Made by a program: the position numbers and the translations under genes. From Rubripirellula sp. (GTDB taxonomy: Bacteria; Planctomycetota; Planctomycetia; Pirellulales; Pirellulaceae), in the NCBI GenBank assembly GCA_965216875.1, contig OZ244207.1, positions 3,168,001-3,232,000 of the forward strand: a stretch of 64,000 nucleotides of DNA, written 5' to 3'. Of the stretch, positions 6,930 through 12,696 are shown piece by piece. How positions within the stretch are numbered: position 1 is the stretch's first letter; every line of letters begins with the position of its first letter. The notes under the pieces were generated by a model, which saw only the letters and a program-made list of their open reading frames with translations, did not search any database and had not been told where the DNA came from.

Positions 6930-8450
6930 TTAGCGGCTCCAGGCAAGCCACTTTTTCATCGCTGCAGCGACGGTGGGCGTCAAACGGGTGCGATTGAATT
7001 GGTCCCCCAATTTACGAATCGCTTCGGCCTGAGTCGGGTAGGGATGAATCGTCGATGCGATCTTTTTGAGCCCGATTCTGTGCTTGATCGCCATCGTTAA
7101 CTCTCCAATCATGTCGCCGGCATTGGTCGCAACCACCGTTGCCCCGACAATCTTGTCCGTTCCCTTTTTGACGTGCACCCGCACAAAGCCCTCCGTATCG
7201 CCTTCGAGAATGGCTCGATCGACCTCGGCAAAGGGCTGGGTGTAGGTGTCAATTTCGATTCCTTGTTGTGCAGCCTCCTGTGGCTGCAAACCAACATGGG
7301 CAAGTTCCGGTGAGGTATAGGTGGCCCAAGGCACCAACAACGAACTCGCCTTTCCACGTCCCATGAAGAGTGCATTTCCGATCACGATTCGCGCCATAAA
7401 ATCGGCCGCGTGTGTGAACTTGTATTTGGAAGCTACGTCCCCCGCTGCGTAAACGTTCGGGTTGGTTGTTTGCAGGCGATCGTTAACTTCAATACCACGT
7501 CGAACATCAAATTGGACTCCCGCGTTCTCAAGCCCCATCCCTTCAACGTTGGGCGAGCGGCCGATGCCAACCAAGATTTCATCACCCACAATCTCGATCT
7601 CTTCGCCTCCCCGCTCAACAACGACAACCTTTTCGTTGTCGCGCCGCTGCATTCGCTTGACTTGCGCGTTCAAGACAAATTCAACACCATCTCTTCGCAT
7701 CGATTCTTGAACCACGAGAGCAGCATCGCTGTCCTCTCGAGGCAAGATGTGATCCGACTTTTCAATTTGCGTGACTTCTGATCCGAATCGCACAAAACTC
7801 TGTGCCATCTCGGTTCCGATCGGACCGCCTCCGATCACAACGAGCCGCCGTGGCAACTCGGTAAGTGAAAAGATGGATTCGTTCGTGAGCGGTTCGACTT
7901 CATCCCACCCGTCAATGGGCAGCTTCGCCGCCCGAGCCCCCGTCGCGATGACGGCCTTCTTGAAGGAAAGCGTTTGCCCATCAACTTCGATCGAATTCGC
8001 ATCCACGAACTTGCCGCTTCCCATGTAGACGTCGACGCCAGCGTCGCGAAAACGGGCCGCCGAGTCGTGAGGGCTGATGCCGGCTCGCAGTCTGCGCATC
8101 CGCTGCATCATCTCAGCAAACTTGACGTTGACGTCGCCCTGAATGTCCACGCCGAATGGTTCCGCGGCTCGAGCGACGGCGGCCACGCGAGCTGCGCTGA
8201 TCAACGCTTTTGATGGAACACAACCAACGTTCAAGCAATCGCCGCCAAGGAGGTCGCGTTCGATCAGTGCAACCTTGGCCCCCAAACCGGCTGCACCGAT
8301 CGCGGAAACGAGCCCGGCGGTTCCGCCTCCGATCACCACCATGTTGTAGCGTCCCGAAGGCGTGGGGTTTTGCCAGTCAGGCGGATGCACGTGCGACTGG
8401 AGCGTTTGGTTGTGTTCGTCGAAAGGTTGAAGTTGAACAAGTGTCGACAT
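6930..8450 (-). CDS. Class I pyridine nucleotide-disulfide oxidoreductase (MerA/LpdA-like, often labelled mercuric reductase)
   Basis: VIGGGTAG FAD motif, GGDCLNVGCVPSK redox disulfide, VIGGGPIG, YAAGD and IHPYPT. There is no C-terminal Cys-Cys pair. ATG at 8450. Confidence 0.9.
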   Translation of the reverse strand: MSTLVQLQPFDEHNQTLQSHVHPPDWQNPTPSGRYNMVVIGGGTAGLVSAIGAAGLGAKVALIERDLLGGDCLNVGCVPSKALISAARVAAVARAAEPFGVDIQGDVNVKFAEMMQRMRRLRAGISPHDSAARFRDAGVDVYMGSGKFVDANSIEVDGQTLSFKKAVIATGARAAKLPIDGWDEVEPLTNESIFSLTELPRRLVVIGGGPIGTEMAQSFVRFGSEVTQIEKSDHILPREDSDAALVVQESMRRDGVEFVLNAQVKRMQRRDNEKVVVVERGGEEIEIVGDEILVGIGRSPNVEGMGLENAGVQFDVRRGIEVNDRLQTTNPNVYAAGDVASKYKFTHAADFMARIVIGNALFMGRGKASSLLVPWATYTSPELAHVGLQPQEAAQQGIEIDTYTQPFAEVDRAILEGDTEGFVRVHVKKGTDKIVGATVVATNAGDMIGELTMAIKHRIGLKKIASTIHPYPTQAEAIRKLGDQFNRTRLTPTVAAAMKKWLAWSR

Positions 8451-8559
8451 GGTCAAGGATCGGCAGGTAAAGAGTGTTCCGTTTCGCCGCTCGCACTGCC
8501 TTCTTCCGATGCGAGCCGGCCAAAGGTCAGTCAATAGACAGGTTTGATTCTCGAAGTCT

Positions 8560-9369
8560 TCATGGGGATGGTGTCAATCGATTCATGATCTTGCGAACCA
8601 GCAACGGAAAGACGCCCAACAGGCCAAATGCAACAACGAGTTGCGCGAGTTGGGAGGGCGAAAAAACAGCCTCCGCACCTTGCTCAGCAAGGATGGTCAG
8701 GTTCGGGACTCGAGAACCAGCGTAGACATACACAATCGTCCCCGGCAACATTCCGAGCTGGCTGACCCACCAGTAGGTACGAGTCTTGATCGGCGTCAGT
8801 CCCATCACCAAGTTGATGACGAAAAAGGGTACGGCGGGAATCAGCCGAAGAGTAAAAAGGTAGAAACCACCCTCTCGCTCGAGCTGCTCGTTGAAGGTCG
8901 TCAGGCGATCCCCAAACTTGGCTTGCACCGCGTCGCGCAACAAATAGCGACTCATCAAGAACGCCAAAGTAGCGCCCGCCGTTGAAGCAAAGCTGACAAG
9001 CACAACGGTTCGCAAAAACCCGAAATACCAACCGTAGACGAGCGTCAGTGCCGCCGCGCCCGGCAACGAAAGCCCGGTCACCGTGACATAGACGATGAAC
9101 GCGATGCCATAGACCAGATAGGGGTTGTTTGCCTGGAACGCACGAAGCTTTGTCTCTTGCTCGGCCAAATAGTCGATCGACAACAGGTGACCAAATTGCC
9201 AAAAGAGTCCGGCAGCAATGGCAATCACAACCACAACGAGCAGAGGTTTGAGCGATCGCCTTTGGTCGCCCACCGAAGTCCCTTGGCTGCCATCAGTCGC
9301 TTCGCTGCCATCGGTCGCGCCGCCGTCGTCAATTGGCTGAGTCGGATCGTAGGGATTGTCGGAGGTCAT
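8560..9369 (-). CDS. TVP38/TMEM64 (DedA/VTT-domain) membrane protein
   Basis: LSLPGAAALTLVYGWYFG, GATLAFLMSRYL, LRLIPAVPFFVINLVMGLT and SQLGMLPGTIVYVYAG, with multiple TM helices. Confidence 0.9.
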   Translation of the reverse strand: MTSDNPYDPTQPIDDGGATDGSEATDGSQGTSVGDQRRSLKPLLVVVVIAIAAGLFWQFGHLLSIDYLAEQETKLRAFQANNPYLVYGIAFIVYVTVTGLSLPGAAALTLVYGWYFGFLRTVVLVSFASTAGATLAFLMSRYLLRDAVQAKFGDRLTTFNEQLEREGGFYLFTLRLIPAVPFFVINLVMGLTPIKTRTYWWVSQLGMLPGTIVYVYAGSRVPNLTILAEQGAEAVFSPSQLAQLVVAFGLLGVFPLLVRKIMNRLTPSP

Positions 9370-9689
9370 GGTGTTTTCGCTTGAATACCTATCCACGCCG
9401 GACGGTTCGGGCCCGCTTAAGGCTCGAGCCGCTGACGCTACGGCGACAGTGGCAGCAGCCTTGGTCGACCGCTCATTTGATTGTCGCTGTCAATGTTAGC
9501 GATCTTACGCCGAATCTGCCGGATAGTCCGTAATGGATTTGCTCCCTCTCGGACCGCCAGCCAAGTCGCTTGCCCCTTCCCAATGATCTGACGGCGGTCG
9601 CATGGGCGACGTGGTCATTGAAAAGTGCACTCTCAAATGATGAGGAAGCACGCTCAACCATGGTCGCGCGAAAAGGATGTCCGACGAAG

Positions 9690-10511
9690 ATGAGAACGAT
9701 TCTGCCCTTCTGTTGTCTCGCCTTGGCATGGGCATTGACCTGCCAAAACAGGTCGCACGGCGGTTCGCCCGTTTACGTCGGGACGAAAGCATCAGCCGAC
9801 ATCTCGATGGACTCCGTTGATCATTCGCTATGGAACCAACTTCTCACCAAATATGTCGATGGCGAGGGGATGGTCGACTATCGATCTTGGAGAGCAAATC
9901 GCCAGGACATCATGTTGCTGGATCAGTATTTGCAAACGCTTTCCAGCGCCAGCGAACGTGTTCATGCGACCAAGCAAGCGAAGCTTGCTTTCTGGATCAA
10001 CGCCTACAACGCAGCGACAATTCGAGGCATCTTGCGTGAGTATCCGACGACGAGCATTCGCAATCACACCGCGCGCCTGTTTGGATACAACATTTGGAAG
10101 GACCTCAAACTCTATGTCGGCGGAACCCCGATTTCGTTGCACGACATTGAACACGAACGGTTGCGGACCATGTCGGAACCGCGTATTCATTTCGCCATCG
10201 TCTGTGCATCCATCAGTTGCCCTCGATTGCTGAACGAGGCCTACTTGCCCGATCGGGTGGACCAGCAGCTTGAATCGAACGCAAAAGACTTCTTCTCGCG
10301 CCAACGCAATTTTCGATTCGACCGATCGCAGCAACGCTTTGAACTCTCATCGATCTTGAAATGGTTCGCCGAAGATTTCGGTTCAAACCAATCAGCCCAG
10401 CTCAAACGCATTGCGGATTGGCTGCCTTCGAAAGAGTCACAACGGATCGCGAGCCTAGGCAAAGGGAACATCACCTATCTCGACTACGACTGGGGATTGA
10501 ACAGCCAGTGA
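9690..10511 (+). CDS. DUF547 domain exported protein
   Basis: Signal-peptide-like start (MRTILPFCCLALAW), G.VDY, LAFWINAYNA, EPRIHFAIVCASISCP, LSSILKWFAEDF and YDWGLN. Confidence 0.9.
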   Translation: MRTILPFCCLALAWALTCQNRSHGGSPVYVGTKASADISMDSVDHSLWNQLLTKYVDGEGMVDYRSWRANRQDIMLLDQYLQTLSSASERVHATKQAKLAFWINAYNAATIRGILREYPTTSIRNHTARLFGYNIWKDLKLYVGGTPISLHDIEHERLRTMSEPRIHFAIVCASISCPRLLNEAYLPDRVDQQLESNAKDFFSRQRNFRFDRSQQRFELSSILKWFAEDFGSNQSAQLKRIADWLPSKESQRIASLGKGNITYLDYDWGLNSQ

Positions 10512-10752: not shown

Positions 10753-12531
10753 CTACCGCATTGCGAGCTGTTCAGGCTTTGCCTGTTCCGCTGCGCGTTT
10801 CTGCCGGGCCTCTTCCTGGACCTTGATGGTCAAATTGCGGATTCGGTCGGCTGCGGTCGGTGACACTTTTCGCAGGACACGCTGGGCTCGAACCAAGAAC
10901 TTCAAGCTCGAGGGCGGATTTGCCTCCAGCGCTGAAGCCCATCCTTCGGCCATCGCAGCGATGAGTTCGCTTTGCCGGACTCCGGCAATGGCATGAAGCT
11001 GAACGCAATCGCTGTTTGCAACCACGAACAAAGGTCTTGCCGAACCACGCGCTTCAAACGGAGGCTGCTTGGTGAGCTGGCTAAGCGCCGGACCTTCCTT
11101 CAGCGGCATGATGACCACCACGTATTCTTCCATCAGCAACTGAAGTGTTGGATCGAGCGTCGGTGGCTGCCACGTCGTTCCTTCGTGCAGCACGAAGAGA
11201 ATCGGTCGGCCAGCATGCTTCGCCATGGCAAGTCGATTCTTGGCTTGGATCAATCGCGGCCCCGCCTTACTCACCTTTTGGCCCAAAATATCCTCGAAGA
11301 TCTCTTCATAGACGAGCTTGAGGTGCGGCAGCGGCTGGTTCATCAACAGTTCGTGGACGCGTTTGTCTTGGCCACTGGCCGGATTCCAACTCGCTTGTTG
11401 ATGCGCCCAAGCGATGTGGTTCATCCGAGCCGACTGAGATGTCTTTGCCGTTGCGATGCCGTACATATCCAGCGCCCAATGCGCTTCGCTAAGCAACACC
11501 TCTGCCGAAACGGGTCCCGTTACCGAATGAATGACGTGACCATCCGGCGTTAAAAAGTGGCTCGCAACGTTGCCACCATTCTTTTGAATTTTGCCGCCTA
11601 CCGAGACAGCACGAAAATCACCAACTTGTTGAAACGCACAAACGAATTCGTCGGCAAACACTTCACCAACGATGGGGTCGGACAGGGCACCCACCCTGTA
11701 TTTTGATGCGTTGTTTCACGTAAACCCAGGGATCTCAAAGTTGCCTGACACATGAATCAGAAAGACAAGCTTGTCCTTCTCTTTGGCCAACCGATAGGCC
11801 GCGGCCGGTGAATCCGCCCATTCCAGCGCGGTCCCATGAGCTTCCATGGCAACGCACGTCGACTCGTCCTGCTTGGTATGCAAAACCGACGCGTTGGGTT
11901 TGGCCAGAGACATGATCGACTCAAATCGACCAGGCTTGGTCGCAACGGCCAAAGGATTCTGAGCTGGCGCTAGCGATACTGTTTTCACCTCGACCGTTTT
12001 CGCCTTGGGACGGGCGTCAGCCAATTGCGACGCGATCGGTGCTTGTTCCTCGACCGGCAAAGACGGCTCGGCAATCTTTGGCTCACGTGGTTGTTCTGCC
12101 GATTTCGATTCGGTAGGCACCGCCGCGGCCACTTCGGCGGGACGTTGCTGCAGCGACTGCGATACCGCGACCTGAGGTGCCGGTTCGCTAATCACTTCCT
12201 CGCCGCCAAAATCAAACGTTATGGCGCCGCGCGAGGGAATCAAGACAGGTTCATTTGCCGCGATGGCATCCAAAAACCTACCGGCGGAACGAAGTTCATG
12301 ATCCGCGACATAGCTCGATGGAGCGTCGCTGGATGGCAATCCAAGTTTGCCGCAAATAAACCCCAGAGCAAGGAACGTCCCAGCAACAACGACGTAGGTC
12401 GCAGTCATCCGAGATTGTTCGGAGGTCAGGTCAATGGTTTCCTCGTCGAACTCGTCGGCTCGCGGGGGCGGCACGACGGGTGGCGGGGAAACGGCCGGTG
12501 CGCCGATTGGCGGAGGCGAATGTTGGTGCAT
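10753..12531 (-). CDS. Putative membrane-anchored thioredoxin-fold (SelN-like) selenoprotein, 592 aa if TGA 11718-11716 is read as Sec (otherwise two ORFs, 11716-12531 and 10753-11694)
   Basis: Both ORFs are in the same frame, separated only by TGA plus 7 sense codons: ...AYRLAKEKDKLVFLIHVSGNFEIPGFT-[TGA]-NNASKYR-VGALSDPIVGEVFADEFV... The first ORF stops in mid Trx-like fold. N-terminal TM helix and Pro/Ala-rich linker. Confidence 0.75.
11667..11718 (-). promoter_or_regulatory. Candidate bacterial SECIS hairpin immediately 3' of the in-frame UGA
   Basis: mRNA reads UGA AA CAACG CAUCAAAAU ACAGGGU-GGGU-GCCCUGU CCGACCCCAU CGUUG. This gives a 7-bp upper stem, a G-starting tetraloop 24 nt after the UGA, and a 5-bp lower stem (CAACG/CGUUG). 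Confidence 0.6.
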
Positions 12532-12696
12532 ATTGTCGCCCAGTTAGGGGAAGAGAAGAAAAGTCCTAGGCACCAGGATTGATCATACCACCCAACGGCG
12601 GCAAAAGTCAAAAGAGACCCGAACACTGGCCGCACGCCCATCCAACGGATGGCACTTTTCGTGGGGAGTGCGTGGAATTTTCGGGCTAAAAGCGTC

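Follow-up and report, generated by a model that had tools for sequence, protein, structure and literature searches.

Two neighbouring 'hypothetical' genes of a planctomycete, Rubripirellula sp., are most likely a single gene which encodes a membrane-anchored, thioredoxin-like protein and in which an internal TGA stands for selenocysteine (Sec). The window, i.e. the whole stretch of DNA analysed, comprises 64,000 nucleotides, and all features described here lie on its minus strand and are given in its coordinates. Taken together, the evidence is best explained, and we say so with good confidence, by a Sec protein of 592 residues that is membrane-tethered and thioredoxin-like and that has a proposed role as oxidoreductase. 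Most likely it represents a large family of the Planctomycetota that current annotation splits in two.

One reading frame across an in-frame TGA

The first of the two open reading frames (11716 to 12531) encodes 271 amino acids from an ATG start, the second (10753 to 11694) 313 amino acids from a GTG start. An earlier reading of the letters and their open reading frames (hereafter the sequence-only reading) had placed both in one frame, separated by one TGA and seven sense codons, and the list of open reading frames and a translation with TGA read as U agree on this point. The TGA is located at 11716 to 11718 (tca on the plus strand) and is followed by the codons for N N A S K Y R (11695 to 11715) and by the GTG (11692 to 11694). 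Translated with TGA as U, positions 10753 to 12531 form a single frame of 592 codons with one recoded codon, U272 in the motif F-T-U-N-N-A, that ends with a TAG at 10753 to 10755. The peptide quoted around U by the sequence-only reading is identical to this translation. Its remark that the GTG lacks a convincing Shine-Dalgarno sequence also fits, as far as inspection goes, since the sole purine-rich run (ACAGG) appears to abut the GTG without a spacer. Judged from the sequences, the two-ORF arrangement is far beyond chance.

It had further been allowed that raw reads might expose the TGA as an error. The TGA is no assembly error: it recurs in an independent metagenome contig from run X5, which has a depth of 53 and differs at 29 letters over 1901 bases, and run X1 shows no difference from the window. 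Between the X5 strain and the window, codons 215 to 592 contain 12 differences, of which 11 are synonymous; all 5 that precede U272 are of this kind, as are 6 of the 7 that follow it.

Of 28 aligned homologues from the same bacterial family, 24 have a TGA aligned to that of the window; this alignment comprises 28 of the 30 loci L015 to L044, as L042 and L044 were dropped as duplicates of L027 and L025. The same holds for all 80 further loci from named Planctomycetota MAGs, which were retained from among 156 relatives found with the narrower alignment A4, and in a phylum sample of 401 genomes one TGA lies within 23 of the 24 non-self matches. The amino acids on both sides of the codon are conserved in the family alignments, and Cys takes the place of Sec in L037, L040, P0047, P0093, P0116 and P0134. 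Thus homology on both sides with TGA or Cys in the column, for which the sequence-only reading had advised to look, was found. U-N-N-A itself is invariant in 20 of 20 aligned Sec forms. Column entropies at codon positions 1, 2 and 3 are 0.52, 0.30 and 1.32 in the 20 codons before the TGA and 0.37, 0.36 and 0.94 in the seven codons after it, and variation lies mostly at third codon positions straight across the TGA.

These observations bear on the current annotation, according to which the TGA would be a true stop and a separate membrane protein of 271 residues would be followed by a protein of 313 residues translated from the GTG. Translation table 11 does yield two ORFs, and in public databases the halves stand under separate entries, as hypothetical proteins. 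Among the best 150 cluster representatives (clusters at 50% identity from a library of 1.84 billion proteins), 129 have their N-terminus just past the Sec column. This is expected if gene callers stop at TGA, and it bears out the prediction that standard gene callers would cut the gene in two; the relatives are likewise split hypotheticals. However, the seven codons between TGA and GTG are conserved as protein, with their variation at third positions. The nearest in-frame start codon beyond the TGA lacks such conservation, as it shifts between +6 and +61 codons among the 24 TGA-bearing homologues. In addition, strand beta1 of the predicted thioredoxin domain is encoded before the TGA and the remainder of the domain after it, and full-length homologues with Cys or other non-Sec residues are single proteins. 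Together with the SECIS-like hairpin and the Sec machinery described below, this makes a pair of separate genes extremely improbable.

Decoding of the UGA codon

From its sequence signatures, the UGA is very probably decoded as Sec. A SECIS-like hairpin is located at 11682 to 11699; in the centroid structure it has a stem of 7 bp, a GGGU loop and a free energy of -9.7 kcal/mol, with a spacing of 23 nt from UGA to loop. For bacterial SECIS elements, a loop of 3-9 nt, a stem of 4-16 bp, G in the first two loop positions, a spacing to the UGA of 16-37 nt and a free energy of at most -7.5 kcal/mol have been given (PMC13188914, Fig. 2 legend), and the hairpin satisfies all four published constraints. 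RNAalifold on 17 main-clade sequences returned six pairs, which are intact in all 102 cells, and two compensatory pairs, in both of which the changed bases are all at third codon positions and synonymous. On all 24 TGA-bearing sequences the same program returned no consensus pairs, because the subclades use different hairpins; three subclades have other hairpins at about the same place. When the cells of all 24 sequences were counted, 83.3% pair, compared with 27-55% for slid partners, and this value was reached by 1 of 500 shuffles. A hairpin that meets all four constraints accompanies 51 of 88 distinct Sec sites and 129 of 1760 control in-frame positions (7.3%) in the same genes, which corresponds to an enrichment of about 8-fold; 37 of the 88 Sec sites fail this strict test, which allows no bulge. 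The single-sequence fold of the window region around the TGA is not significantly stable (z -0.89). A second in-frame TGA was observed in the homologue G006; no clear hairpin follows it and it was not counted as a second Sec.

A search of the genome for selA, selB, selD and tRNA-Sec, as suggested by the sequence-only reading, found all four. The tRNA-Sec scores 71.5 bits against RF01852 and is called SeC with the anticodon tca by ARAGORN, and selD, selA and selB form one cluster and are all above curated cut-offs. Across genomes, selA is present in 21 of the 22 that carry the TGA form, the exception being 64% complete; as a test of Sec this association is weak, since 78% of the sampled genomes (118 of 151) have selA and related genomes are not independent. 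A global reassignment of TGA is ruled out, as TGA ends 16 of the 32 long frames in the window and is the commonest stop there.

If the UGA were read through by a near-cognate tRNA (Trp, Cys or Arg) or by means of another recoding signal, the conservation on both sides of the codon would be explained too. However, with its spacing and its small, G-rich loop the hairpin fits the published bacterial SECIS model and is enriched over controls, Sec and Cys exchange for each other among homologues, selA accompanies the gene in nearly all carrier genomes, and TGA serves as the main ordinary stop in the window. Trp at the Sec column was seen neither among the aligned homologues nor among the representatives that span the column. 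Consequently, we regard read-through other than as Sec as very improbable.

Besides Trp, variable residues at this position had been named beforehand as evidence against Sec, and these do occur in distant relatives. Of the best 150 representatives, 17 reach across the column and show Cys (4), Ser (4), Ala (4), Gly (2), Glu (2) or a gap (1) there, and L035 and L036 have G or A. As the non-Sec distant relatives share 28-38% identity with the window protein and in most cases have no partner Cys (see below), we take them to have lost the redox centre and not to speak against Sec. The Ser, Ala, Gly and Glu forms thus indicate that the fold can exist without Sec or Cys. Under Sec decoding, SelB with Sec-tRNA(Sec) would bind the hairpin 23 nt past the UGA, and Sec would then be inserted as residue 272.

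Predicted architecture and proposed chemistry

From N- to C-terminus, the product would consist of a short Pro-rich stretch, a membrane helix, a long disordered linker, a flexible arm with Cys226, a thioredoxin_7/DsbH-like domain, a helical connector, a second thioredoxin-like domain without redox residues and C-terminal helices. The membrane anchor is predicted from a single hydrophobic stretch, residues 42-65 (12337 to 12408), with a Kyte-Doolittle maximum of 1.99 over 19 residues; the charges that flank it do not settle the orientation. Residues 66-214 (11890 to 12336) form an Ala/Pro/Ser-rich, fast-evolving linker in which 11 of 16 strain differences are non-synonymous. Both features correspond to the N-terminal transmembrane helix and the Pro/Ala linker that had been proposed. 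Shorter paralogues seem to have a signal-peptide-like segment at the N-terminus where the anchor stands. Further downstream, thioredoxin-like domain 1 (residues 227-361; 11449 to 11853) spans the UGA and is followed by the helical connector (residues 362-424; 11260 to 11448; helices at residues 152-201 of the AlphaFold model), thioredoxin-like domain 2 (residues 425-534; 10930 to 11259) and the C-terminal helices (residues 535-592; 10756 to 10929; helices at model residues 329-377).

The AlphaFold model across the TGA is one compact region (pLDDT 93.4, pTM 0.85) with two thioredoxin-like domains, so that the expectation of a thioredoxin-like fused product is matched by a confident prediction. 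In the model, Sec is positioned at the N-terminal end of the helix that follows strand beta1, as is typical of the thioredoxin fold, and a weak profile match to 3ira_A (E 0.036) places the Sec column at the first Cys of T-C-H-W-C. Going by the model, the protein quite probably adopts a thioredoxin fold with Sec at the position of the first Cys of CxxC. The narrower claim of a Thioredoxin_7-type fold fared less evenly: the model and the profile match speak for it, but no Pfam match exceeded the gathering score. Both halves and the fusion gave 0 Pfam families at E <= 1, and among 57 family members Thioredoxin_7 was hit in 7 (best E 0.0019) and Thioredox_DsbH in 5, all below threshold. Foldseek against the PDB gave no match at E <= 0.001, the best being thioredoxin h at 1.1e-2; structurally nearest are thiol-disulfide oxidoreductases and relatives that have one active Cys, AGR3 among them. 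In a protein atlas the Cys-form homologue P0093 was matched to unnamed clusters at 0.89-0.90 and to Thioredoxin_7 clusters at 0.77-0.79, which serve as leads only.

A dithiol motif of the CxxC, CxxU or UxxC type is absent, and U-N-N-A contains no second Cys or Sec. Domain 2 has neither a Cys nor a Sec motif, in line with the proposal of a non-CxxU Sec site followed by a second thioredoxin-like unit devoid of a redox motif. A possible partner of Sec was found further upstream instead. Of 86 distinct Sec forms, 85 have a Cys (or U) at 66 to 26 residues before Sec, compared to 1 of 11 non-Sec homologues; elsewhere Cys occurs at a frequency of 0.68%. The window protein has a sole arm Cys, Cys226 (11854 to 11856), 46 residues before Sec, and close homologues show C-x-D-G-x-C in the flexible arm, sometimes repeated. 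As AlphaFold does not place the arm Cys (pLDDT < 50), it is their co-occurrence that suggests a Sec-Cys pair.

We envision a membrane-tethered, extracytoplasmic, selenol-based oxidoreductase. With its motif T-U-N-N-A and no second Cys, Sec272 would stand in for the attacking Cys of CxxC, attack the substrate and then form a selenenylsulfide with the arm Cys as the resolving step. Substrate binding is a possible role of the inactive second domain, as it is of the non-catalytic domains of PDI. This redox pair and the role as oxidoreductase are put forward tentatively, with an even chance of being right at best.

Alternatively, the protein might be a genuine selenoprotein whose Sec272 and arm Cys act in metal or metalloid binding, or as carriers of sulfur or selenium, and do not form a redox centre for thiol-disulfide or peroxide chemistry. 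The lack of a second Cys in U-N-N-A would fit such a role, the C-x-D-G-x-C motifs in the arm of close homologues could be a metal site, and several catalogued bacterial selenoproteins are metal-binding (PMC13188914, Table 1). However, in the model Sec stands where thioredoxin folds canonically have their nucleophile, the single arm Cys of the window protein suggests that only one is needed, and the nearest structural matches mentioned above are redox enzymes and one-active-Cys relatives. Thus a binding or carrier function is rather unlikely, and the selenol-based oxidoreductase remains our preferred reading.

Relation to known proteins and significance of the family

Among the closest known proteins are those with Thioredoxin_7 and Thioredox_DsbH folds (3f9u, 2lst, 3ira, DsbH 2ju5 and the C-terminal domain of DsbD, 1vrs). 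In contrast to these, the window protein has no significant Pfam match, uses U-x-x-A with Sec and no second Cys, and comprises seven extra residues on the way from strand beta1 to the active site; where the cis-Pro loop usually lies, it appears to have G-G-N-V. AGR2/AGR3 and PDI with its non-catalytic domains were compared as well, the AGR proteins being PDI-like with one active Cys, while sequence homology is not claimed. AGR proteins carry a CxxS motif, whereas the window protein uses Sec in place of Cys, is bacterial and is predicted to be membrane-tethered.

With the catalogued bacterial thioredoxin-fold selenoproteins, among them thioredoxin (UxxC), thiol:disulfide interchange protein (UxxC), Trx7/PDZ (CxxU), VPGUxxT and others (PMC13188914, Table 1), the window protein would share the decoding system, the general fold class and a Sec at the position of the redox motif. 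It differs from them in its proposed resolving Cys, which lies about 46 residues upstream and not inside the motif. For most catalogued families the list gives an NCBIfam or Pfam model id, and T-U-N-N-A is absent among the 119 prokaryotic selenoprotein families as listed there (PMC13188914, Table 1). A search of the fused protein against NCBIfam release 20.0 gave 0 families at E <= 1.

Eukaryotic selenoprotein N (SELENON) is described as having a single transmembrane segment at its N-terminus and a Sec-bearing thioredoxin domain on the non-cytoplasmic side. Its structure is stated to be unsolved (PMC7474598). The window protein has one hydrophobic stretch and Sec in a predicted thioredoxin fold, its topology being a prediction. 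No EF-hand was detected in it (0 Pfam matches), and its F-T-U-N-N differs from SCUG, the Sec motif of SELENON. Among the named database matches none is called selenoprotein N, in searches that depend on shared words. A more far-reaching reading, which we consider improbable, would see in the family the bacterial counterpart or evolutionary source of SELENON; the shared design would be a membrane anchor and a non-cytoplasmic thioredoxin_7/UAS-type domain with an active-site Sec. Irrespective of such kinship, this reading would take the family as near-obligate-Sec, multi-copy extracytoplasmic oxidoreductases of Planctomycetota that work through a selenenylsulfide between the active-site Sec and a Cys on a mobile N-terminal arm. 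If the family were related to SELENON, it would offer an accessible bacterial system for the study of a human disease protein of which no structure has been solved.

Judged by record titles, the family occurs in several lineages of Planctomycetota, among them Pirellulaceae, Isosphaeraceae, Gemmataceae and Planctomycetaceae, and some genomes of the 401-genome sample hold several copies. Every named relative among the database matches is a 'hypothetical protein', and we found no description of the family in the literature on planctomycete selenoproteins, on SECIS and thioredoxin-like selenoproteins and on bacterial relatives of SELENON. One 'hypothetical', split planctomycete candidate, with a reported SECIS and a closest match that has Cys, is given in Table S9 of PMC4807772; it is listed without sequence and is a possible member of the present family. 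The neighbouring genes (MTHFR, PhyH, DUF547, a VTT domain protein and a pyridine nucleotide-disulfide oxidoreductase) gave no supportable functional link.

Selenoprotein genes are routinely split by gene callers, and here a whole family has been treated in this way. Its recognition would offer for mechanistic study a predicted thioredoxin-fold enzyme that combines a Sec nucleophile with a distal resolving Cys, and it would extend the present list of 119 families of prokaryotic selenoproteins. Furthermore, hundreds of annotations would be corrected and estimates of selenium use by planctomycetes would rise.

A probable single gene read as two

The two ORFs listed as hypothetical, an upstream one of 271 aa with an ATG start (11716..12531, minus strand) and a downstream one of 313 aa with a GTG start (10753..11694, minus strand), lie in the same frame. 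If the TGA at 11716-11718 (minus strand) is read as U, both form a single frame of 592 residues with one recoded codon, U272, which ends at a TAG stop at 10753-10755. Between the TGA and the GTG at 11692-11694 lie seven codons for N N A S K Y R, an arrangement that exactly matches the sequence-only reading of two same-frame ORFs split by a TGA and seven codons.

Sequence error as the origin of the TGA was checked against read-derived contigs. Run X1, possibly the source of the window DNA, gave a sequence identical to the window, and the TGA is kept in the independent metagenome contig X5 (depth 53), which differs from the window in 29 of 1901 bases. We tabulated 28 of these 29 differences: 12 fall within codons 215-592, 11 of them synonymous (5/5 upstream of U272 and 6/7 downstream), and 16 within the linker (residues 66-214), 11 of them non-synonymous.

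Among 24 TGA-bearing homologues, the first in-frame start past the TGA varies from +6 to +61 codons, thus no downstream start is conserved. Third codon positions hold most of the variation on both sides of the TGA, with entropies at codon positions 1/2/3 of 0.52/0.30/1.32 for the 20 codons before and 0.37/0.36/0.94 for the 7 codons after it. Searched with HMMER, 1.84 billion cluster representatives yielded 641 matches at E <= 0.001. Among the best 150 of these 641, 129 start (within 12 residues of the N-terminus) just downstream of the Sec column, two are N-terminal halves ending at it and two are other fragments. Only the remaining 17 extend across the column, where they have Cys (4), Ser (4), Ala (4), Gly (2), Glu (2) or a gap (1). 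Every named relative is annotated as 'hypothetical protein'.

Two plus-strand ORFs overlap the selenoprotein gene (10972-11553, 193 aa; 12025-12582, 185 aa); they are probably shadow frames, arising in a GC-rich coding region. The adjoining genes (6930-10511) encode a pyridine nucleotide-disulfide oxidoreductase (534 aa) and a VTT/DedA-type membrane protein (278 aa), both on the minus strand, and a convergent DUF547 protein (313 aa, plus strand).

Decoding of the UGA

A global reassignment of TGA was ruled out, since TGA is the commonest ordinary stop in the window, where it ends 16 of the 32 frames of >= 300 codons. The genome, one contig of 8.26 Mb, encodes a tRNA-Sec (71.5 bits to RF01852), which ARAGORN called as tRNA-SeC with anticodon tca. 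In addition, selD, selA and selB form one minus-strand cluster (contig 325282-330621) and score above their curated cut-offs (249.3 vs. 125, 507.5 vs. 267.9 and 343.5 vs. 242.25 bits), so that all four components searched for are present. The first gene of this cluster encodes a 723-residue SelD fusion (L013:1387-3558, minus strand; contig 1 of the window's own genome G000, ~325168-327339), which carries a pyridine nucleotide-disulfide oxidoreductase domain at its N-terminus, ahead of the AIRS/AIRS_C selenophosphate synthetase part. selA was found at E <= 1e-40 in 118 of the 151 genomes sampled from the same bacterial family, and in 21 of 22 genomes with the TGA form, the exception being a 64% complete genome. 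This co-occurrence agrees with Sec use, but as a weak test, since selA is common in the sample and related genomes are not independent.

Using the read-through protein as query, matches were obtained in 26 of the 151 family genomes, and each codon-spanning match contains one TGA. An alignment with one segment per locus comprised 28 of 30 loci (L042 and L044, duplicates of L027 and L025, were omitted); the same column is TGA in 24 of the 28, Cys in two, Gly in one and Ala in one. The motif is [F/L]-T-U-N-N-A in 22 of the 24 TGA-bearing loci and M-U-S-A-G-H in the other two. A phylum-wide sample of 401 genomes gave matches in 14 genomes, with one TGA in 23 of 24 non-self matches. Finally, a one-genome-per-species scan yielded 156 relatives, of which 80 loci were kept, all with TGA at that column (80/80). 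The design of the scan did not favour TGA, because one search pattern had Cys there and the other lay far from the codon. Judged by record titles, the 80 loci stem from Rubripirellula, Rhodopirellula, Mariniblastus, other Pirellulaceae, Isosphaeraceae, Singulisphaera, Gemmataceae, Fimbriiglobus and Planctomycetaceae, and from a few MAGs labelled Alcaligenaceae. Homology thus extends across the codon, with TGA or Cys aligned there.

Some Planctomycetota genomes harbor several TGA-bearing paralogues (G484, contig C115:2344-5387; G254, G275, G059, G129, G100), one of them with a tandem array of three on the same contig. In the homologue L021 (genome G119), the C-terminal part shifts to another frame after residue ~464, which is a frameshift or assembly error unrelated to the TGA.

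According to PMC13188914, bacterial SECIS elements have an apical loop of 3-9 nt with a G at one of its first two positions, an upper stem of 4-16 bp, a UGA-to-loop distance of 16-37 nt and a free energy not above -7.5 kcal/mol. The SECIS-like hairpin at 11682-11699 (minus strand; stem of 7 bp, loop GGGU, spacing 23 nt, -9.7 kcal/mol) therefore falls within all four constraints. Two results count against a SECIS element: the single-sequence fold around the window TGA was not significant (z -0.89), and RNAalifold found no consensus for all 24 TGA-bearing sequences, since subclades use different hairpins. For 17 main-clade sequences, RNAalifold gave 6 pairs with 0/102 cells broken. Two of these pairs show two-sided changes (C-G to U-A once, G-C to A-U three times), and all bases changed are third codon positions. 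Across all 24 sequences 83.3% of cells were paired vs. 27–55% with the 3' partners slid, a value reached by 1 of 500 shuffles. In a strict search without bulges, a hairpin within all four constraints followed 51 of 88 distinct Sec sites vs. 129 of 1760 control positions, taken in frame from the same genes. The loops at Sec sites were GGGC, AGGU, CGUGU, GGGU and GGUC, with a spacing to the UGA of 23 or 18 nt. The distant subfamily L038 (G096) and L039 (G043), with TGA in the same column within M-U-S-A-G-H, has another hairpin, of 6 bp with the loop CGUGUC, at an equal spacing.

Taken together, the conserved TGA column, the SECIS-like hairpin and the Sec machinery support the earlier proposal, and the UGA at codon 272 is very probably decoded as Sec.

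Predicted fold and the arm cysteine

AlphaFold2 modeling of residues 215-592, with C replacing U and a 57-sequence alignment, gave a pLDDT of 93.4 and a pTM of 0.85. Structural searches identified two thioredoxin-like domains, as foreseen for the fused product; Foldseek listed thioredoxin-fold proteins only, none of them at E <= 0.001. Sec (model residue 58) follows strand 41-49 and immediately precedes helix 59-66. Comparing the family profile with PDB sequences, the Sec column falls opposite the first Cys of T-C-H-W-C in 3ira_A (a weak match, E 0.036). Sec thus likely occupies the position equivalent to CxxC in a thioredoxin fold. Domain 2 aligned to 3fk8 (E 0.0093), whose CxxC region lies opposite a stretch without Cys, in line with the suggested second unit lacking a redox motif. 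A Pfam search of the window protein found no family; among 57 family members the most frequent hits, all below threshold, were Thioredoxin_7 in 7 members (best E 0.0019) and Thioredox_DsbH in 5 (best E 0.0086).

Upstream of the domains, residues 42-65 form a single hydrophobic stretch, and a linker is rich in Ala, Pro and Ser; these correspond to the predicted transmembrane helix and Pro/Ala linker. The charges flanking residues 42-65 do not settle the topology. Judged from their sequences, shorter paralogues carry a signal-peptide-like N-terminal segment in place of anchor and linker, from which we infer that the domains would lie outside the cytoplasm.

Of 86 distinct Sec forms, 85 carry a Cys upstream of Sec, at a distance of 26-66 residues and mostly at -40 to -52; elsewhere in these proteins the Cys frequency is 0.68%. 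Of 11 non-Sec homologues having the region, only 1 has such a Cys. In the window protein this is Cys226, within a flexible arm that AlphaFold left unplaced. Based on this co-occurrence, one might propose a selenenylsulfide between Sec272 and Cys226; such a Sec-Cys redox mechanism is tentative, its chances being even at best. Compared with this single arm Cys, the close homologues L018 and L047 have three or four, arranged as C-x-D-G-x-C units through tandem C-Q-D-G-T repeats. One MAG homologue (L028 in G006, also L082) has a second in-frame TGA exactly at the arm-Cys codon, which is TGT in a sister genome (L029, L083). No clear hairpin follows this second TGA; it may encode a second Sec or result from a sequencing error, or the gene may be broken.

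Relation to known selenoproteins

The gene is standard in its decoding system and fold class. Table 1 of a review from 2026, which catalogues 119 families of prokaryotic selenoproteins, has no T-U-N-N-A family, and by a search of its text the review does not mention Planctomycetes (PMC13188914). In the same table, most catalogued families carry an NCBIfam or Pfam model id (PMC13188914); NCBIfam release 20.0 gave 0 matches to the read-through protein at E <= 1. In the literature searched on planctomycete selenoproteins and prokaryotic relatives of SELENON, the family is not described. One unnamed split candidate from a planctomycete genome appears as 'hypothetical' in Table S9 of PMC4807772 and might or might not belong to the same family. 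SELENON has been described as a type II membrane protein that has an EF-hand and, on the luminal side, a thioredoxin domain with Sec. Set side by side by description, its architecture is similar to that predicted for the window protein, which however has a different motif and no detectable EF-hand. We conclude that the gene is very probably a genuine selenoprotein gene, split in the current annotation, and that it belongs to a large, so far unnamed, family of the Planctomycetota.
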